Positions 31,985-46,589 of a stretch of DNA of 64,000 nt are shown in pieces (within the stretch, counting starts at the first letter, position 1; every line of letters starts with the position of its first letter). Location of the stretch: assembly GCA_002269645.1 (NCBI GenBank), contig NIVC01000255.1:1-64000 (forward strand). Direction: 5' to 3'. Origin of the DNA: Macrostomum lignano (Eukaryota). The position numbers were made by a program, and so were the translations under genes. The notes beneath the pieces are model-generated. The model was given only the letters and a program-made list of their open reading frames with translations. It ran no database searches and was not told the DNA's origin.

Positions 31985-32744
31985 CCCCTAGTGCCATGCT
32001 TTGTTGTTTTAACATTGCGATTGTTGCAAACGTTGACGAGAAGCCATGTTGCTATTACACTGTTGCTAGAATGTTTTAGAAACGTTGATTATGTTTTCGA
32101 AAATTAAATAATGCAACCTCTCTTTTTCGTAAATTACACAATCTATTAAAGAATGAATAAGTTTTTATATTTTAATAACTTTTAAGTTATCTATTTATTA
32201 CTAATGGATTATAACTTTTATTTAGGATATACTTTTTGTTGAACTGCGTATTCAATAAATGCTTTGTGCTATAATTTTCAAATTTCATCGTCCTTAAATT
32301 TTTGTTGTGCGCTGGAGACCTAAATTGGCTAAGCCAAGAGCTAAGGAGCCTAGGTATTTGAGAACAGTTCGTTTGATTTCATCACTTCAATTCAATTCAT
32401 TTCAGTGCCTTTTGAATTATCATTCAACAATTTTGATTACTAGCATACAACATACTAGCTCGATTACTTGCAGTGCCACCTGGCATCGATGTATTGGCAT
32501 TTTTGGCTTACCTTGTCATCACCATGGTGACAACTTCTGATTCTGAAGTATAAGAGCCTGTGGGTCGTTATCTGGTGATTAATGATAACCTGTCAATGTC
32601 AAATAATCCAATGCCTTCTGGCTCTAACCAACAGGGTCATTCTATTGGTAAGGACTCTTTAAAGCTCGTAGATAGTAGACCTAGTTATTTTATTATTAGT
32701 AGCTACTATTTATTAGCTACATAACACATGCTAGCTTTTTCTTG

Positions 32745-33683
32745 TGAAGTAGCTAAAACCCTATTATATACTGTATGTTACGTATTTCACGCATGTAATT
32801 CTGCCTTTTCCTTTTAGTGTATTCGTAAACTCAATTAATACTATGCACTAAATATGTACGCCTACATCTTTTATTTTGCCTTAACAAAGAATTCAGTAAG
32901 AAAATATTGTTATAATGTATCCGCCATTTTTGTAAAATTTACTATATAAGCAAGAAAATATACGGTAGGAAAGATAACTTTCTCCGCTTGGTTTGCCACT
33001 TGGCTCCAACACTCATATCCTGAGCAGTTGTGCTAAAAATAGAACTTAGTATTCGTCAGTCTTCCCTCCTTTTCTTAGAGGAGCGTCCAGTAGAGACGAA
33101 CAGCCACTCCCTTCCCTTCCTCACCGCGAGCGCTCCCCGGAACGATCCGAGCCCGCACATACCCCCCCCCCTTGGACGTGCAGTAATCCCAAGAAGCCCT
33201 CCCCACTCTACCCCAGGCATAGCGATTGCCAAGTCACTGCCCGCCCCGACTAATTGTCCCTTAATATTAGACGTCTGATTCCGCTACTTAATTCCCAATG
33301 AAGCAAACTGCCCTCCCCGCCAGCATTCCCCATTAACCACTAGAATTCCCCATTAGCGCACCAGGCAACTCTAATCCATCGCGAAGCCCTTACCCCCCCC
33401 CCATTTATATTTCCCTGGACTGAGTAGAAAATTGTGTCTTGCCGCTCGGACACATCACGCCACCAGGAGCAACCTAAGGCTTACTCCTATCAGTAGTAAA
33501 AATTGCGTATCTTCTTTAAATCCCAAGACCCTCGAAATTCCCTGCAAAAATTTGATAAAATAAAGTTAATACTCCCCGACCCCTGTAACAAATTTGGCGG
33601 AATTTTAGTGAAAAGCAAAAGACACTATCACAAATTTGGTATCAGTAATAGGATAAACTTACCTCCCTCACGACCCTACAACA
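32745..33683 (+). repeat. Gypsy 5' LTR
   Basis: TGAAGTAGC...CTACAACA; differs from the 3' LTR by about 13 substitutions and 3 small indels (hand count). Confidence 0.95.
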
Positions 33684-33686
33684 ATT

Positions 33687-33699
33687 TGGTGGCAGCGGT
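33687..33699 (+). promoter_or_regulatory. Primer-binding site complementary to the tRNA-Leu 3' end
   Basis: TGGTGGCAGCGGT, 3 nt after the LTR; complementary to ...ACCGCTGCCA-CCA of eukaryotic tRNA-Leu(AAG/UAG). Confidence 0.8.
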
Positions 33700-33771: not shown

Positions 33772-35493
33772 ATGGCCGCAGGAATTAACGAAGCCCTAGG
33801 ACTCTTAGCCGAAGAGCTCCGTAAACAGCGCCGATCAAATTCAAGAAACTAGTAAAAGCATTAGTACATTTGACGGTACCCCATTCCAATTAGAAGGAGA
33901 AGTATCCGCCCAAGTGAAATTTGGCGATATCCAAATCGAAGTTGATTTCCTCCTATGCCGACATGACTGTGACAATATTCTAGGAATTGAATTTTTCCTA
34001 TTCCAATGCGAAAGCATTCAGCTAGCCAAAGGAATGCTAGTGCTCAATGAAGGAACTTGTATACCCATGCAGTATACCCGCCTACCCGTGAAAGTTTGCC
34101 GAGTTTATACTCAAGAAAGAGCAACCGTCCCAACCAATAGTGCCCTCCGAATACCCGTGAAATTAGCCAAGAATTGTGAATCGAATTACGGCACTCCCAT
34201 GACCATAAAAGCCATTGGCGATACTATCCGAACCCGTGATTTCTCATTAGAAATGGTTCCAACCCTAGTAACTATGAAAGAAGGCAAAGGAATTGTCGAG
34301 ATTATTAACCGCCACCCAGTAGATGTGAATTTAACTCAGACTTCCCTAATTGGCCTAGCCAGACCCATGAAAGCCAAAGACTTGACCTATTGGCAAACCC
34401 AATCTACCAACCCCCAACCCCCGGCGAAAGTCAACCAGACCCAATGTACAGAAGACTCATTGAGTAACCCACGAAATCTCTATTAAAGACCCCACCCCCG
34501 TTAGGATCCCAGCTAGACGCATCCCCCCACACTTGCAAAAGCAAGTTGACGCCCAATTAGACGACATGTTAGCTAAAAACCTAATTAGACCCTGCTATTC
34601 AACCTACTCCACCCCCCTAGTAATTGTCCCCAAGAAAGATGGTTCCATCAGAATAGTCAGCGATTTCCGAGTACTCAACTCAAGAGTTAATTACTACCCC
34701 TACCCCCTCCCCAATATCCAAAAGACCTTCTCCCACCTAACTGGTAGCCAATATTTTAGCAGCCTTGGTTTAAACTCAGGATACTGGCAAGTCCCCATCA
34801 AAGAAGAAGATAAGCATCGAACCGCCTTCTCCACCCTAACTAGAGGCCAATTTGAATACCAAGTGATGGCCCAAGGACTTTCCAATGCCCCCGGAACCTT
34901 CCAACGTCTAATGAATTTAGTCCTATTAGGAATCCAGCATAAGTTCGCCATGTCCTATATAGACGATATAATAGCCTACTCCCAAACTTTTGCCGAACAT
35001 TTAGAGCACTTGAGAGAAGTATTCAAGCGACTAATTGCCGCAGGTCTAAAGTTGAGACCCAAAAAGTGCAATCTTTTCCATCACGAGTTAAAGTACTTAG
35101 GACACGTGATTGGCCGACAAGGCATTCAAACAGACAAGACGAAGATTGAAGCAATCCAAACTGGGCCCCGTCCTAAAGACGTAAAAGAATTACGCAGTTT
35201 TCTTGGCCTATGCAACTATCATTGCCGATTTGTAAAGAATTATGCCAAAGTGGCTCACCCCCTATTCCAATAGACTCGAAAAGAAGTCCAGAATTTCCGA
35301 TCTAAATGGAGCAAAGTGCATGATGAAGCCGTTGAAGCTCTAAAGCAGCGAATGATATCCACTGAAGTGTTAGCATACCCCGAATATGTCGAAGATGAGA
35401 ATGTGAAGATGGTGCTCGACACAGATGCCAGTGACGACAGGATTGGCGCATGCCTTGGCCAAATCCAGAGTGATGACATAGAGCGACCAATAG
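33772..35493 (+). pseudogene. Gypsy gag stub / protease C-terminus / RT / RNase H N-terminus
   Basis: MAAGINEALGLLAEELRK is fused by deletion to the protease end (CDNILGIEF). RT motifs PLVIVPKKDG, DFRVLN, YPLP, GYWQV, MAQGLSNAPGTFQR, YIDD, YLGH; RNase H LDTDAS..IGACLGQ..ERPI, then interrupted. Confidence 0.93.
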
Positions 35494-35593
35494 TTCCCTT
35501 CGTTCCCATAACCCCGATACTTGAAACCGGAATTGCACAACAAGCAAACAATCTATTCTCAATCTAGTCAATCGACCTCCACCCGTCCAAACG

Positions 35594-36637
35594 GTGCAGT
35601 CGGTGGTCGTTAGAGGTGTACCGACGGAGATCGAAGTACCGGCCTTCGTAGAGCATCTAAAGAAGGATGTGGGGCTCAAGGTCGTCTCTGCGAGCCGCAT
35701 AACCTCCAGAGCGCGAAATGAGCCGACGCATCTAATCCGACTTTTCCTTCCCAATAAGGCTACTGCTGATGCGTGCCTGGCAACGGGCATTATATCCGAC
35801 TTTACGCATTATGTCTGTGAGCCCAGCAAGACGACCGCTCCAGTAAGGGCACTCCAATGTAGCAAGTGTCAACGTTTTGGACATACTGCCAACCGGTGCC
35901 GGTCCGCCCCCCGCTGCAATATCTGTGCGGAGGCGCATCGTTGGCAGAATTGCCCCAACCCTGAAGCGGCAAGGTGCGCCAACTGTGGAGAGGCTCATCG
36001 GGCCAACCACCGAAACTGTCCTGTGGCCAATGAAAAACATGACGAAGCGGCCCGGCGTGCTGCAGCGTTCCAAGCTGGCGCCCGGGAAGCGGCAGCAACG
36101 GCACAGGCAACAGTGGCAAAAACCAATCGAGCAGCTTTTGCAGCAGCACTGGTACCGGCAGCAGCAGCAGCAGCAGCAGCGCCACCTGCCCCCGCTCCTC
36201 GTCCAGCCCTAGCGACGGCGTCAAGAGCAACCGAGACCGCTGCACGGGCGTCCACGGCTACGGGGGGCACTGACGACGACTCGTCCTGGCTCACCGGCCC
36301 CAGCCTTCCTAGTCGGAAGCGCCCTGTGCGCGACTCGATTGATTCTGAGACCCAAACGCAGCCGCCAGCAAGAGCTGAAGCGCCAACTAATGTACCGGAC
36401 TTTCAAGGACTGGTGAGTGGGCTCCTCCCCCTCCTGGTTCAAGCACTTGTTGAGGTGCTTACGACTCTCTGGCTGAGTCCAGCCGAACGGCCGCCTACTA
36501 CAGAAGGTACCGGTCAATCCGTGCAAGATGTAGTAGGTAGGGTTCTGGCCCGGGTACTCGAAAGAGGATCGGCAAGTCACAAAGGCCTTGGTCAGCTGCT
36601 TGGTGCCTCCTGGCGTCAGGCGGATGGCCAGACCTAG
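35594..36637 (+). CDS. LINE B ORF1 (gag-like, three CCHC knuckles), N-terminally truncated
   Basis: CSKCQRFGHTANRC, CNICAEAHRWQNC, CANCGEAHRANHRNC, followed by an Ala/Pro-rich linker. Confidence 0.88.
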   Translation: MQSVVVRGVPTEIEVPAFVEHLKKDVGLKVVSASRITSRARNEPTHLIRLFLPNKATADACLATGIISDFTHYVCEPSKTTAPVRALQCSKCQRFGHTANRCRSAPRCNICAEAHRWQNCPNPEAARCANCGEAHRANHRNCPVANEKHDEAARRAAAFQAGAREAAATAQATVAKTNRAAFAAALVPAAAAAAAAPPAPAPRPALATASRATETAARASTATGGTDDDSSWLTGPSLPSRKRPVRDSIDSETQTQPPARAEAPTNVPDFQGLVSGLLPLLVQALVEVLTTLWLSPAERPPTTEGTGQSVQDVVGRVLARVLERGSASHKGLGQLLGASWRQADGQT

Positions 36638-39530
36638 ACAAATATCTAGAGAATACCTTCGGTGATAGTGAGTCAGACAGCTCTAACCCCGCTGCCCTAG
36701 GGCTTAAGATTGCCCATCTCAATTGCAGGGGGATTATACCAAAGCTAAAAGAACTCAGGCTCTGGGTCTCAGACCAAAAGCTGGATATTGCTCTGTTTTC
36801 TGAGACCATCCTAAAAAATACCCAAGTATGCACTTTTCCGGGCTATGCTGCAGTGCGGTTTGACCTTCCGAACACGAACCGTGGACTCCTCCTTGTGCAC
36901 ACCCCTCGAGTAAAGGTAGCCGACGTCCAGCTCTCGTATGACAACGTCAACCATGAGGTCCTCACCTGCACAGTCACTCCTGTGGCGCCCCCGCGCATGT
37001 CCACCTTTCCAATTATCCCTGGTCTATCGGTTCCCATCGCCGGACAACCTTGACACCGGTCTTTTGACGAGGCTGTCTTCGGCCAAGTATTCGCTCATCA
37101 TGGGAGACCTAAATGCTAGACACAGCTTCTTAGGGGGCGAAAGTCGCAATAACAGAGCAGGACAGCAGCTCCACGATTGGCTCTGTGGCAATCCATCCCA
37201 ACGCCCTACCGTTCTCAACCAACCAGGCCAGTTTACTAGAATAGCCCATCGGCAAGGCGTTGTGTCCCGGAATGTGCTTGACCTTGGGTTAGCCTCCGGT
37301 GACCTCGTCTCATATGTTCAAGACTTTAAAGTGGGCTCTGACCTGGACAGTGACCATCTCCCAATTATACTCACGCTAGCGAGCAACTCCCCAGATTGGC
37401 AAGGGCCGGAGAAGGCCCGAAATTTTGCCAAAGCTAACTGGGAAGAGTTCCAAAACTCCCTGATGGAAAAGCTGGTACATGCGTGGCCTCCAGACCTTAG
37501 CACTAGGCAGCAGATTGATGCGGAGGTCGACCTCATCACAAACGCAATCCAGAAAACCATTGAGGAAAATGTCCCGGTCAGAAAAGGCCGTAGAGCACTC
37601 CCCCAAAGGATCATTGCTATGATCAAGGAGAGGAGAAAGCTCCGGCGTCTGTATCACAGTACCAGGGACGATAACTTTGGGCTGCTTGCGAATAGGAAGG
37701 CGAAGGAGATTAAAAGCGCTATCCATTCGTTTGAGCAGGGCCAGTTTACCCAATTGTGCGAGAAAATAGTTGAAAAAAGTCAATGCCGGAATGTCAAGGA
37801 CTTCTGGCAAGACAAAAAAATTGATGGGGCGTAAAAAGGGCACCACTATTCCATTCTTGAACGATGGCGTCTCCCTCGCACATACTGACTCAGACAAAGC
37901 GGACATGCTAGCGAGTGCGCTAGATGCCAAAATGCGTCCAATCCCATCTACTGACGAGAATCTGAAGAAGCGGGTTGAGCAGGTCATGAAGCTCCCCCTT
38001 TTCAGACCTGTCCCTCCGGGCGCTAAACCGCATATGGGCCACCCCCTGGAGGCTCCGTTTTCTGTTACAGATACCCTCTGGGAGCTGGACCATCTGAAAG
38101 TCGACAGTGCTCCGGGCCTGGACAAAGTTCCTAACTGCGTCCTTAAGCATGGCCTAGAGCCCATTGCGGTTACCCGCATTACCAAACTCTTTAATGATTG
38201 TTATCGTACGGGCATCTTCCCATCGCAGTGGAAAAAAGCGGTGGTGACGATGATCCCCAAACCAGACAAACCGCCTGAGTCCCCGGGATTCTATCGGCCT
38301 ATCAGCCTGACTTCCTGCCTCGGCAAGGTGTTCGAGAAATTATTGGTGAGAAGGCTGATGAAACATCTTGAAGACCAAGGAATCCTCGGTGCGGACCAGT
38401 GCGCCTACAGGAAGGTCCACTCGACGTATGACAACCTTGTCCGACTCGTCCAGGACGTCCAAGTGGGCAAAGCTAAACTTAAACGGCTGCTGGCCATCCT
38501 CCTTGACGTGCAAGCGGCGTTTGACTCTGTGTGGTATGACTTCCTGCGGTTTAGAATGCACGAAGTTGACACACCAGATGCCCTTGTCAGGATCTGCTCA
38601 GACTATCTAGCAGAGAGGCTAATGCAGGTCAGGGTGAACGGAGCGCTCAGCCAACCGTACGCGCTACAGGCTGGCGTCCCACAAGGCGGCATTTTAAGCC
38701 CGTTCCTGTACCTGCTCTTTATCAGCACCATGCCTCGGCCACAACATCCAAACCTCAAGCGCAGCCAGTTCGCCGATGACATGGCCATCTGGGCCTCGGC
38801 GGACTCCTTCGCCAGCCTCAAGACTCTCCTGCAGCCCTACCTTGACCAGGTTTGGAACTGGTGTGGGGGACAGGGGATAAAGATCAACGCTGGCAAGAGT
38901 CAGGCAATCGCCTTTAACTACAAACCTACTCGCCGGCTCGATCTGCGCCCCAAGCTTAAACTGGGCGGCACGAATCTGGAATACTAAGAAGTCCGGTTCC
39001 TTGGTATGAACCTGGACTACCGGCTGACCCTCAACTCTCACGTAGAGAGAGTTGTCAGCCATGGTCGGGCGCTTGCCCTGTCGATCAATCGCATTGCAAA
39101 GCTCACCCGACTAAGCAGCAATACCCTAAAAATGCTATACAGGGCCTACGTGGAGAGCGTGCTAACCTATGGCGCCCCCGTGCTCAATATCATTGCACCC
39201 AGCAACCTCAACAAGTTGCAAAAAATCCAAAATCTAGCCCTCGGGATTTGCTACGGTGCCCCAAGTTACACGCAGGTGGCCTACCTTCACGAGATCGCAG
39301 CGATCCCCATGCTGGCCGACAGGCTTCGGGCCCTTGGAGTAGGATGGCTGACGAAGGTGAAGGCCGCCGGGCACCACGACTTCCATATTGAGCCTGAGCT
39401 CCCTAGAGCGGCTAGAAATCTCCTCCAGTGCTGAACCTTCTTTGGGACAGCCTAAAAAGGAGGCACGCAAATAGGTTAGCTGCGGCAAATGCGGCAGCCC
39501 GAGCGGCTAGAAACCCGCCTTGAGCTAACC
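36630..39530 (+). pseudogene. LINE B ORF2: APE + RT, broken
   Basis: HLNCRG, SETIL, MGDLNARH, SDHLP; APGLD, YRPISLTS, LLDVQAAFD, GVPQGGILSP, QFADD. Frameshifts near 36840, 37020, 37810 and 39420; stop at 38985-38987. Confidence 0.92.
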
Positions 39531-40313
39531 ATAGCCCCCCTCCGCTGCGCGTTAGTGCAGTGTCGAGTGAGCCAAAAAGAGGGCTTAAATGCTGCCAATT
39601 AAACATATAGGAAATAAAAGCGAGTGCTTGACTGGTTGGGGGGGGGGTCCCGCGATCCAGTTTTAAAATGGGCAGATCAAGAGAACTTTATTGCTTACCT
39701 GTGATCGCCTGAACCGCACCGCCGCTTTCTTTTACATTGCTTCCTATATTATTGTTAAACATAACTGTACATATCCAAATATCTGCACGCCTGCCTTTTT
39801 GCACCCAGGCATAAATGCGTTTTTATTCAGCTCTTGCCACTTTTTTACTCTAAAAAAATAACTTTTATTTTACACTACTAATGCTTTTATCTATGTTTTA
39901 CCATTGTACATATGACAAATAACTAACTAAATTATTTTATCACCTGGCTACTACTTACAGTAGTCATTTTCAATTAATGCCAATACTACTCTAAATTTTA
40001 ATCCAATAATGCTTGCACTACCCCTTACAGTATGGTCCAGATCTTTGTGAGGACCCCCCTCTATTCAGAAATTCCCCCTATTTTAGTGCAAAATAATCTT
40101 AACGAAGCCAAATGTAAATATTTTAAATCCCAACTCGAAATTCAATTTTTAATGCTTCGCCAACTAAATTCGTACATATAATTTATAATAAATCGGCAGA
40201 GCCCATCTCGGGCTGATCCGAGGGTGCCTAACTTACACCCATTCGTTTAACAACAACAAAAAACAATCTATTCTGCTATCCCGATAATTACTATTGCTAT
40301 CCCGCTATCCGAT

Positions 40314-41429
40314 ATGTCCGACAAAGCGAGAAACCTAGAGAAGCTGCAAGACGAACTCAGTTTAAGCCCCAGCGAAGAAGAAGGCGAATTAATTAGCGAC
40401 GAAGAAAATGAGCTGCCTATTCCCGACCGCAAGCAAACTAGACCCCAGCCTCCCAAACCAAGGCCTCGCCCATCCTCCGTGGTGGTGCGCCCACCGACTA
40501 GTACAACTCCCATGGATCGAGTCGACCTTCTAAAACGTCAGGCTGAAGCTCCAGTCCGAACGCCTCCAGCCACTTTGAAGCGCCAGCCCAAAGACTGCCG
40601 CTCTTCTATTATTCTACCTCCGGCCGAAACCCCTAGTACTAGTGTTATGAAGCGCCTGGGACCTCGTCAGCCGTCTGCAATTTCATCTCTCCGGCAACGA
40701 TCGAAATCACCCGCCAAACAGCCGTCAACAAGAAGGCCGCCAACGTCAACGATCTCAACTCCCCGGACGCGTGCTAGGTCACCAGTCAGGCGATCGACAG
40801 ACAGACGGCCGTTGGTCAGTCGGCAGCCATCATCAGCATCGCCGCCCCGTGACCCCCGGCCGCGATCCAGCTCGCCTAAGCAGCAGCCATCGTCAGCCTC
40901 GCCTAGGCAACGAACCAGGTCGCCCGCCATGCAGCCGCCAATCAGCCAGCCGTCATTGGTGACGCCACCGGCACAATATGGCCTGCGATCACAGCACCAG
41001 CCTATTGAAAGATCACCTGTCGCTCAAATTCCCCCCTTGATGGTTGATTATGTCGAGCCAAATCCTCTGGAGGAGATCAGAGGCGAATTCGGCATTGTCA
41101 TCCTTCATCTTTCTGAGAATCAACGAGAAGAATACCGCCGGTTGGCCAACAATATGAAGAACTACATTGTTAGCATGGGCCGTCTTCGCCTGGACGGTAG
41201 GCCTCTGCCAACCCGAGAAGCCCTAAAGCCTACGATTCAAGCTCTGCGCCGAATGCAGCCGCACCAGGCTGTCGCTGCTTGGAAACGAGCCGTGGCATAT
41301 GCCTTGCATGAGCTTAATAACGGCTGGGTCAACCGCGCGATGGTTCGAACTGAAGTCCTGTGGACTGGTCTAGAATGTGGTTGGCCCTACCACGATCGAC
41401 TACCGACTGCTATGATTCAATATATGTAG
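40314..41429 (+). CDS. Gypsy extra ORF (env position, not env-like), 371 aa, unknown function
   Basis: ATG-to-stop open frame between the pol remnant and the 3' LTR. Acidic N-terminus, about 200-aa Arg/Ser/Pro-rich region with RxxSP repeats, and a C-terminal region of about 120 aa that looks globular. No signal peptide or TM segment. Confidence 0.75.
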   Translation: MSDKARNLEKLQDELSLSPSEEEGELISDEENELPIPDRKQTRPQPPKPRPRPSSVVVRPPTSTTPMDRVDLLKRQAEAPVRTPPATLKRQPKDCRSSIILPPAETPSTSVMKRLGPRQPSAISSLRQRSKSPAKQPSTRRPPTSTISTPRTRARSPVRRSTDRRPLVSRQPSSASPPRDPRPRSSSPKQQPSSASPRQRTRSPAMQPPISQPSLVTPPAQYGLRSQHQPIERSPVAQIPPLMVDYVEPNPLEEIRGEFGIVILHLSENQREEYRRLANNMKNYIVSMGRLRLDGRPLPTREALKPTIQALRRMQPHQAVAAWKRAVAYALHELNNGWVNRAMVRTEVLWTGLECGWPYHDRLPTAMIQYM

Positions 41430-41568
41430 TGACTGAATCTGATATGCTATCATGTTACTGACATTAGTGTGTAACGTTTTTGAAAAATTCTCCCGCACTT
41501 TTTTTAAAAATTTTTTGCTATTTTTCACGCGCATGTTTTTTTCGAATTTTTCTTTTAGGAAAGCCAAT

Positions 41569-42507
41569 TGAAGTAGCTAAAATCCTATTATATACTGTAT
41601 GTTACGTATTTCACGCATGTAATTCTGCCTTTTCCTTTTAGTGTATTCGTAAACTCAATTAATACTATGCACTAAATATGTACGCCTACATCTTTTATTT
41701 TGCCTTAACAAAGAATTCAGTGAGAAAATATTGTTATAATGTATCCGCCATTTTTGTAAAATTTACTATATAAGCAAGAAAATATACGGTAGGAAAGATA
41801 ACTTTCTCCGCTTGGTTTGCCACGTGGCTCCAACACTCATATCCTGAGCAGTTGTGCTAAAAATAGAACTTAGTATTCGTCAGTCTTCCCTCCTTTTCTT
41901 AGAGGAGCGTACAGTAGAGACGCACAGCCACTCCCTTCCCTTCCTCACCGCGAGCGCTCCCCGGAACGATCCGAGCCCGCACATACCCCCCCCCTTGGAC
42001 GTGCAGTAATCCCAAGAAGCCCTCCCCACTCTACCCCAGGCATAGCGATTGCCAAGTCACTGCCCGCCCCGACTAATTGTCCCTTAATATTAGACGTCTG
42101 ATTCCGCTACTTAATTCCCAATGAAGCAAACTGCCCTCCCCGCCAGCATTCCCCATTAACCACTAGAATTCCCCATTAGCGCACCAGGCAACTCTAATCC
42201 ATCGCGAAGCCCTTACCCCCCCCCATTTATATTTCCCTGGACTGAGTAGAAAATTTTGTCTTGCCGCTCGGATACATCACGCCACCAGGAGCAACCTAAG
42301 GCTTACTCCTATCAGTAGTAGAAATTGCGTATTTTCTTTAAATCCCAAGAGACCCTCGAAATTCCCTGCAATAATTTGATAAAATAAAGTTAATACCCCC
42401 CGACCCCTGTAACAAATTTGGTGGAATTTTAGTGAAAAGCAAAAGACACTATCACAAATTTGGTGTCAGTAATAGGATAAACTTACCTCCCTCACGACCC
42501 TACAACA
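41569..42507 (+). repeat. Gypsy 3' LTR
   Basis: Matches 32745-33683; preceded by a short purine run AGGAAAG and followed by TSD CTTG. Confidence 0.95.
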
Positions 42508-42859
42508 CTTGCCTTAATTTAAGCTATTATGAAGCAAAGCTAAGGCCTAATGTCCATTTTTTTATTTGAAAGCTTTATGTTTAATTTTTTTGACTCAAAT
42601 ATATAGAATTCTTTTAAAAAATATATAACATTTTTAGAAAGACAAGTCATTAATTCGTAAGGCCTAATAATACTTGTAGATACAAATTTACTAGATATAT
42701 AAAATTTTATATAAATACAATATAAATGATCTAATACACTTAAAGACAAAATAACATTTGATGATAATCCATTAGCTAATTGCTTTTACCTTAACTTTAA
42801 AACTTTACCTAGACAATTCGGCTTCTAGAGAATGTAGTAAACGAACTATTCAACGGCAT

Positions 42860-45800: not shown

Positions 45801-45882
45801 GAGGAAGAGGGGGCTCTAAATGATCTGGCAGCTGATGAAGACGTGGCCATCATTACTGATGGTACCGTGTCTCTATATTCTC

Positions 45883-46182
45883 TCTAGCTGACTCTCACTT
45901 CATCTAGCTGACTCCCTCACTGCATCTAGCTGACTCCCTCACTGCAACTAGCTGACTCCCTCACTGCATCTAGCTGACTCCCTCACTGCATCTAGCTGAC
46001 TCTCACTGCATCTAGCTGACTCTCACTACATCTAGCTGACTCCCTCACTGCATCTAGCTGACTCCCTCACTGCATTTAGCTGACTCCCTCACTGCATCTA
46101 GCTGACTCCCTCACTGCATTTAGCTGACCCCCATCACTGCATCTAGCTGACTCCCTCAATGCATCTAGCTGACTCCCTCACT
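45883..46182. repeat. 22-bp minisatellite (TCTAGCTGACTCCCTCACTGCA), about 14 copies
   Basis: Period 22, with a few 20-bp variants. Confidence 0.95.
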
Positions 46183-46589
46183 CAGTCTAATTGAAAAACA
46201 TTAACGACATTAAATTCACAAATACAAAGTATATCTGCATTAAAGCATCCCATTTGTCATTTGTGCATTTTCTATATATGCATTTTGCATAACCAAATAA
46301 TTACTGTTGGAACATATTAGCATTGACATGGTTTCTATAAAATTTTTCTTTTATTTTATTACCAGGCTGCAAAAAATGGCTACAGTAATGAACATTACTA
46401 AATAAGTTGATTATACACGCCATGCTACAAAGGTTGCACAAATTTTGCTATCTGGTTGATTTTGCAATGTTGCACATCAACATTCCTACAACATTCATGA
46501 GCGCGACAAATGAAACATTTCATCAACATCTTCTACTTGTTGTCATCAACATTCCTGCAACAGTGCTACAACAAACTTGGCACTAGGGG

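Follow-up and report, generated by a model that had tools for sequence, protein, structure and literature searches.

The open reading frame next to the 3′ LTR of a degraded Ty3/Gypsy retrotransposon in the flatworm Macrostomum lignano is one copy of a lineage-wide gene, here called ORF3, which is under purifying selection at family level, pol-less derivatives included. Comparisons of related elements show ORF3 and the first half of the LTR as one cassette, which has been swapped between near-identical gag-pol bodies and a pol-less lineage. Our preferred reading, held tentatively and a little short of an even chance, is that ORF3 would act on LTRs of its own type as an activator or anti-silencer comparable to foamy-virus Tas. 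The activation of animal LTR retrotransposons is usually attributed to host factors, and few of these elements have a regulator of their own, such as CERV. The ORF3 family, kept by pol-less parasites and inherited with the LTR type, allows a cognate-versus-non-cognate test of self-activation or silencing evasion. Furthermore, element 'families' defined by reverse transcriptase (RT) can hide many regulatory types, and orthogonal activator–promoter pairs, if true, would be useful as tools.

The window element and its nested LINE

The window analysed here is a stretch of 64,000 nucleotides (contig NIVC01000255.1, positions 1 to 64,000, forward strand). The element within it has the marks of a Ty3/Gypsy LTR retrotransposon, namely LTRs that end in TG...CA, a 4-bp target-site duplication (TSD; CTTG), a polypurine tract (PPT) and a primer-binding site (PBS), which we take to be of the tRNA-Leu type (Table 1). 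The initial annotation gave the LTRs as 939 bp and about 98% identical; both lengths are confirmed, and the alignment has 924 matches and 13 mismatches in 937 columns, with three indel events (98.6%). The TATA-like site in the LTR suggests that U3 is probably short and R long. The gutted interior that had been described is also found. Compared with the intact relative L038, about 1.5 kb of gag and early pol is missing, which leaves some 18 gag codons; a stop stands behind the RT core; and about 2.65 kb is missing compared with L032, comprising the rest of RNase H, the integrase and most of the pol–ORF3 spacer, so that RNase H is broken at 35493 and there is no integrase. Intact relatives (L038, L048, L060) have the pol order PR-RT-RH-IN by Pfam, whereas the window copy is truncated. 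The best non-host RT–RNase H matches are about 50% identical and carry no clade name. At the 3′ end of the LTR (window 33607-33683; also L066 and L116), repeated PBS-like segments look as if primer-site remnants had been absorbed into U5.

Table 1. Features of the Gypsy element in the window, in window coordinates
Feature	Position	Strand	Remarks
5′ TSD, CTTG	32741..32744	.	partner 42508-42511
5′ LTR, 939 bp	32745..33683	+	
PBS	33687..33699	+	common to relatives
gag remnant, ~18 codons	33772..33824	+	comparison with L038
pol remnant	33830..35493	+	part of protease region, RT (Pfam RVT_1), RNase H start
Stop TAG after RT core, inside pol remnant	35271-35273	+	Pfam, sister comparison
pol–ORF3 spacer remnant	35508..35559	+	comparison with sister elements
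TTGCACAA block in spacer remnant	35533-35540	+	clade-wide; putative start-site region
LINE TSD, 14 bp	35546..35559	.	partner 40261-40274
Nested LINE, 5′-truncated, 4.7 kb	35560..40260	+	Pfam, free copies, TSD
ORF3, 371 aa, accessory gene	40314..41429	+	ATG 40314 to TAG 41429, uninterrupted
Acidic amphipathic N-terminal helix, aa 3-17	40320..40364	+	predicted; aa 8-17 fit class 1d export-signal pattern
Short cross-family motifs	40422..40556	+	PxRQxTRP-like, SVV, RxxLLxxQA helix (aa 66-78, pLDDT ~79)
Basic RS/SP linker	40665..41021	+	predicted disordered; sequence not conserved
Conserved C-terminal domain	41052..41426	+	six predicted helices, pLDDT 87, pTM 0.82 (AlphaFold2)
PPT	41555..41568	+	
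3′ LTR, 939 bp	41569..42507	+	TATA-like site at LTR position 199

A nested LINE makes up half of the internal region. It sits 40 nt upstream of the ORF3 ATG and consists of a zinc-knuckle ORF1 remnant, an endonuclease–RT ORF2 in four pieces, a 3′ UTR and an (ACA)n tail; its free copies are 85% identical. The initial annotation had overlooked this LINE, as well as the deletion of most of the putative ORF3 promoter. Since the ORF follows the LINE immediately in the window, as it does in L033/L034, it might be taken for a neutral passenger or for part of the insertion, a reading to which we give practically no credence. LINE-free Gypsy sisters carry the sequence flanking both sides of the LINE TSD, and ORF3 therefore belongs to the Gypsy element; 12 of 12 other LINE loci that were fetched are without the ORF, and the gene is under purifying selection, which together refute the passenger reading and uphold the earlier description of an accessory gene.

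Another member of the (ACA)n-tailed LINE family is found at the same spot just upstream of ORF3 in L033 and L034 (G000:C1298 and C283), and the members at this spot are 76–84% identical (window 35546-40274 against L033/L034). The shared spot is probably explained by the likeness of the target to the LINE tail. A LINE dedicated to the site upstream of ORF3 was considered and rejected, as only 2 of 14 other LINE loci share the spot (93% alike, probably one event) and 12 lie elsewhere. Five of these 12 (L103, L106, L110, L111, L113) have one 3′ flank in common, which suggests a second preferred target or tandem arrays.

ORF3 of the window is uninterrupted next to the 3′ LTR and, as had been annotated, carries an acidic N-terminus and four SP motifs (aa 129, 153, 182 and 200), together with a C-terminus of about 125 aa predicted to be all-helical. 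Its openness, on the other hand, had been offered as evidence in an otherwise gutted element and does not serve as such. The LTR divergence predicts about 7.7 substitutions in the frame, the probability that it would still be open under neutrality is 0.73 with substitutions only and 0.12–0.40 with indels, and the ORF1 remnant of the LINE likewise has 370 codons without a break; the intactness of the window ORF3 is thus unremarkable. As far as its sequence tells, the window copy is probably dead or non-expressed and decaying.

A lineage-wide gene and its product

That other Gypsy copies would carry the ORF is borne out, as the C-terminal 130 aa match at every one of the 150 places that were scored among 226 candidates in the 764-Mb genome. 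Identity is 24–82% apart from the window copy itself, and the gene is the third ORF in elements of the layout gag-pol-ORF3. Sixty of these places were fetched as 10-kb loci. They were selected to be diverse and, for the most part, to have long open frames, which biases counts of intact frames among them upward; 44 of the 60 have an LTR pair. Complete copies run LTR, gag (300–350 aa), pol (~1,615 aa), ORF3 (279–535 aa), LTR, with LTRs that are mostly >99% identical. The reverse test places the C-domain at most 7 kb downstream in 33 of 36 RT relatives. Deep clades A and C are recovered in both the RT and the ORF3 trees, and clade B is unresolved in the ORF3 tree. A profile search of 1.84 billion representatives returned six proteins, five labelled Macrostomum lignano and one Logan cluster; one of the six is identical to ORF3 of L066 and is annotated as a hypothetical protein.

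Selection on the ORF, earlier raised as a possibility, is observed at family level. Among pairs with dS 0.04–1.5 and identity >55%, C-domain dN/dS is 0–0.45 in 35 of 35, below the neutral value of about 1, in pairs that overlap and are not independent. Nine non-overlapping close pairs have 60.5 synonymous changes over 838 sites and 33.5 non-synonymous changes over 2,531 (pN/pS 0.18, p=2e-15), and two pol-less pairs give an ORF3 pN/pS of 0.14 (p=1e-4). The N-terminus and linker are likewise under purifying selection. For the window ORF3 and its nearest relative, dN is 0.08 and dS 1.14.

In terms of layout, the full-length model places helices at aa 3-15 and 66-78 within otherwise disordered sequence ahead of the C-domain, in which D, P, L, E, W, W and P are invariant and the net charge is +1 to +9. 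Of 45 ORF3s, 41 have N-terminal 45 aa whose net charge is −5 or below; among the four exceptions, three begin at an upstream ATG and one is broken. The linker is basic and unalignable between families, RS/SP-rich in some of them only and with Q-, P- or A-rich repeats in others. SP dipeptides number 0–8 per ORF3 (n=45), the window copy holding the maximum and eight having none, and the likeness that had been drawn to the RS/SP tails of SR proteins and hepadnaviral core thus does not extend to the family. The description as non-env stands: a hydropathy scan, rather than a dedicated predictor, detects no membrane segment or signal peptide in 45 of 45 ORF3s (maximum Kyte-Doolittle-19 ≤1.21, with acidic N-termini), and the window ORF3 has no hydrophobic segment (maximum 0.28).

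Searches named no family for ORF3, and the C-domain is confidently predicted as helical. Full ORF3 has no Pfam family at E 0.1, the 21 C-domains searched include no DnaJ at E 1, and Foldseek against PDB and viral libraries gives no match at E 0.001. The best E in a PDB sequence search is 0.098; the word-index search returned none with the full-length alignment and one with the C-domain alignment against longer proteins. Best Z scores in the VIA fold search are 7.2 (wide), 6.7 (second look) and 8.3 (full-length model). A homodimer prediction, run without an alignment, gave no verdict (score 0.00). One lead came from the atlas, to the tyrosine-recombinase core-binding domain (QRICH1, Phage_int_SAM_1, ALOG), at 0.86–0.89 and under its bar; a second family member did not reproduce it, and the hhalign probability with 18 in-genome domains was 1.2%. 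Among the fold matches listed (best 50 per search) there is no such core-binding domain, which is no proof of a new fold. Separately, QRICH1-type core-binding domains occur at 101 places in G000 (e.g. L071-L102); most of these loci are presumably Crypton-like, and a few look like a domesticated host gene. Two further observations concern single copies. ORF3 at L036:7259-8332 has its last 33 codons duplicated in tandem and in frame. L056 and L057 (G000:C1098) are identical elements in a tandem arrangement at a distance of 8.6 kb, and one and the same stop interrupts the ORF3 C-domain of each.

Inheritance of ORF3 with the LTR

Members of clade A are 94–100% identical in their gag capsid, RT and RNase H proteins, with RT dS of 0.09–0.39, whereas the ORF3 C-domains of the same pairs are 37–85% identical, with dS of 1.1 or saturated; the RT and ORF3 trees conflict within this clade with strong support. 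First-half-LTR similarity exceeds 0.4 in all 37 pairs with ORF3s >70% identical and in none of the 593 others, a comparison for which some LTR ends are missing from the fetched loci. The 61 pairs with RT >93% identical but different ORF3s have a mean first-half-LTR similarity of 0.03. Near-identical LTRs are found despite silent-site-saturated ORF3s that are about 73–80% identical (L042/L044, L049/L050, L070/L120), which fits both exchange among compatible types only and homology-limited crossover. Tnt1 subfamilies reportedly have divergent U3 regions, this regulatory part of the LTR being more diverged than the coding genes; unlike here, U3 in Tnt1 travels without an accessory gene. Family-specific tandem repeats (13–46 bp, up to 11 copies) are present in the LTRs of L058, L128, L127, L069, L117, L052, L134 and L038, mostly downstream of the LTR TATA in what appears to be a long R region.

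The pol-less lineage comprises 12 of the 44 LTR-bounded loci, nine of which keep a long open ORF3. Autonomous and pol-less bodies have common cassettes of 2.6–2.9 kb at 94–97% in four of four pairs tested. Furthermore, L066 and L070 have bodies that are 89% identical and ORF3s at only 47%, L116 and L117 have Gags at 96% and ORF3s at only 47%, and the C-domain is 100% identical between L066 and L116 and between L070 and L117; body and cassette thus vary independently. Nine mini-Gag ORFs (~195 aa) of pol-less loci are 50–97% identical mutually and 31–41% to full Gag. They lie, among others, at L066:4783-5373 and L070:4610-5197 and in L120, L121, L122, L125, L126 and L127, with a CxxC motif at the end; mini-Gag is possibly a capsid-derived parasite or dominant-negative factor.

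Deeply diverged types on one backbone resemble balanced incompatibility groups, as might be expected if ORF3 were a particle-associated or competition factor involved in packaging, localisation or exclusion of other cassette types. We consider this very unlikely, because the Gag capsid region is 98–100% identical where ORF3 C-domains are only 39–58% identical, similarity between ORF3s is not matched by similarity in gag (rho −0.15, 55 pairs), and the 45 ORF3s have neither signal peptide nor membrane segment. It is also conceivable that ORF3 targets host proteins and shows no specificity for its element, perhaps by suppressing piRNA or chromatin silencing, in which case its coupling to the LTR would be no more than linkage. 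Short motifs kept in otherwise unalignable disorder (RxxLLxxQA-like in 18 of 22 families, RQP in 21 of 22) would suit such a role, as would the purifying selection on the N-terminus and linker. Pol-less parasites should, however, be able to do without a public-good suppressor, yet a long open ORF3 is retained by 9 of 12, under selection, and dN/dS above 1 is not seen in the pairs compared; we therefore regard such action without element specificity as improbable.

Putative internal promoter and candidate functions

A TATA box lies 60–120 nt before the ORF3 ATG in 10 of 13 clade B/C loci (0–9% in shuffles) and has a common downstream CCC(T)GA-like context. No canonical TATA is found upstream of ORF3 in clade A, the clade of the window (0 of 9), where the spacer keeps non-coding blocks, namely TATCGATC, a GTCACGAAA-like block, an AT-rich stretch and TTGCACAA. 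The conserved or TATA-containing spacer is likely a promoter for LTR-independent ORF3 expression, to judge by its sequence. The window spacer has kept the last block (TTGCACAA) only, now 4.7 kb from the ORF3 ATG. With the upstream promoter-like blocks deleted and the LINE between the rest and the ATG, the window ORF3 is probably silent. The initial annotation had suggested looking for a spliced mRNA from the 5′ LTR, and the sequence favours a putative internal promoter instead; no AG occurs in the window between the 3′ end of the LINE and the ORF3 ATG. Contigs of presumed-RNA runs cover parts of the ORF3s of L048 and L070 and cross the spacer. They contain no leader-to-ORF3 joint and no start pile-up, and are neutral on promoter or splicing, as they can show neither starts nor absence.

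The reading of ORF3 as a Tas-like activator or anti-silencer builds on this putative LTR-independent promoter, on the acidic helix, on the folded domain and on strict inheritance with U3. ORF3 would be a conserved non-envelope third gene of the Gypsy lineage, inherited or exchanged with the first LTR half and made, independently of the LTR, from its own internal promoter in the TATA-containing spacer. Working in the nucleus as an activator or anti-silencer, ORF3 would turn on those LTRs that match its type. Its C-domain would recognise sites that are particular to the type and lie in U3 or in the 5′ portion of R, and its acidic N-terminal helix would recruit host co-activators. Many cassette types could then persist on one gag-pol backbone as separate regulatory niches. 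A type-specific factor of this kind would explain why pol-less parasites retain ORF3, as with VANC. The predicted N-terminal helix may also be taken for an acidic activation helix, and PhixxPhiPhi, a pattern that is typical of such helices, occurs in 12 of 12 clade B/C families and in none of 10 clade A families. The wider picture, possible though on balance we would not count on it as a whole, is of an env-less lineage with a portable, self-starting, type-specific switch, made up of an internal promoter, an activator of unrecognised fold and a cognate U3, of which a dozen or more ancient cassette types would be borne by a common gag-pol body and by pol-less parasites, like incompatibility groups.

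Several points count against an activator. First of all, ORF3–U3 coupling is also expected from physical linkage and the lack of crossover homology. Second, clade A does without a canonical TATA, and no common spacer–LTR response element emerges from 9-mer sharing, the own LTR ranking first in 1 of 20. Third, the C-domain charge is just +1 to +9, and the N-terminal helix fits an export-signal pattern in 13 of 22 families and lacks PhixxPhiPhi in all 10 clade A members. Finally, snakehead retrovirus has a 3′ ORF that had been taken for a Tat-like gene and turned out to be largely dispensable (PMC12193657).

ORF3 could also be an adaptor of the Rev/Rex/CERV kind, which binds element RNA at a site within the cassette and, by way of an export signal at the N-terminus, promotes the stability of this RNA or its export from the nucleus, under regulation by phosphorylation; we think this rather unlikely, though a serious contender. 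Rev-type factors come from spliced mRNA. The class 1d export pattern (as defined in the available portion of PMC3442415) is present at the N-terminus in 13 of 22 families (shuffles 0.4–21%), with clade A at 9 of 10 and clade B at 4 of 5, and the candidate signal, which precedes a basic linker, lies in an acidic helix that has disorder on either side, as true signals do. On the other hand, the pattern is missing in 7 of 7 clade C families, such patterns give many false positives, and SP sites are absent from 8 of 45 ORF3s. The best VIA row with the full-length model is the C-terminal domain of the export factor Gle1 (Z 8.3, rmsd 4.0, 120 aligned), a weak match that is tied with unrelated helical proteins (Z 7.4) and falls to 5.4 with the domain-only model. 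CERV of Cer1 provides a Gypsy precedent in the part of PMC10309623 available, but is made from a spliced mRNA, whereas ORF3 looks promoter-driven. RNA export and anti-silencing both remain live for ORF3.

The activator or anti-silencer reading finds its closest parallel in foamy Tas/Bel1, an acidic-class activator that binds internal and LTR promoters and has little homology between species (accessible part of PMC517496). As in that system, a non-structural gene lies near the 3′ LTR, has an acidic region and diverges strongly between types, and the internal promoter of ORF3 is putative. Unlike Tas, in which the acidic region is C-terminal, ORF3 has it at the N-terminus, and no sequence relationship was found; the host of ORF3 is an env-less Gypsy retrotransposon, and activation by ORF3 is proposed by analogy. 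CERV of C. elegans Cer1 is likewise a novel accessory protein of an LTR retrotransposon with structured domains and flexible linkers, and ORF3 is similar in its candidate export signal and possible proline-directed phosphorylation. The five-exon spliced mRNA sharing exons with gag, the Cys loop and the G-like domain described in that portion of PMC10309623 have no counterpart in ORF3, which is a single downstream ORF. VANC of Arabidopsis VANDAL, as covered in the available part of PMC5735166, also diversifies with the type of its element and goes with family-specific non-coding tandem repeats, which several LTRs here have and several others lack. VANDAL elements are, by contrast, plant DNA transposons, with DNA methylation as the target, and no homology was found.

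Non-env third ORFs and internal promoters for ORF3 are already known, from the parts of PMC5408684 and PMC4402516 at hand. Bdelloid Juno and Vesta are invertebrate Gypsy elements with a non-env third ORF downstream of pol, but encode there recognisable enzymes (GDSL, DEDDy) or TM proteins, whereas the flatworm ORF3 has no named domain (PMC5408684). Oikopleura Tor3b/4b have a promoter, Penv, in pol or the pol–ORF3 spacer, as may also be the case in the flatworm; Penv drives a membrane Env and was shown by RACE, whereas the flatworm promoter is a candidate from sequence (PMC4402516). The ORF3 protein family and the exchange of a promoter–ORF–U3 cassette were not found in the openly searchable literature, and a prior mention elsewhere is possible. 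The main text of PMC12801592 does not contain the term 'ORF', the family is not in its Table S1, and neither four gene ids nor the PBS motif occur in its five supplements; LTR reporter transgenes, according to the same paper, already work in Macrostomum lignano.

Outside the element, the window also holds a tandem array with a 22-bp unit and at least 12 copies (45861-46194).
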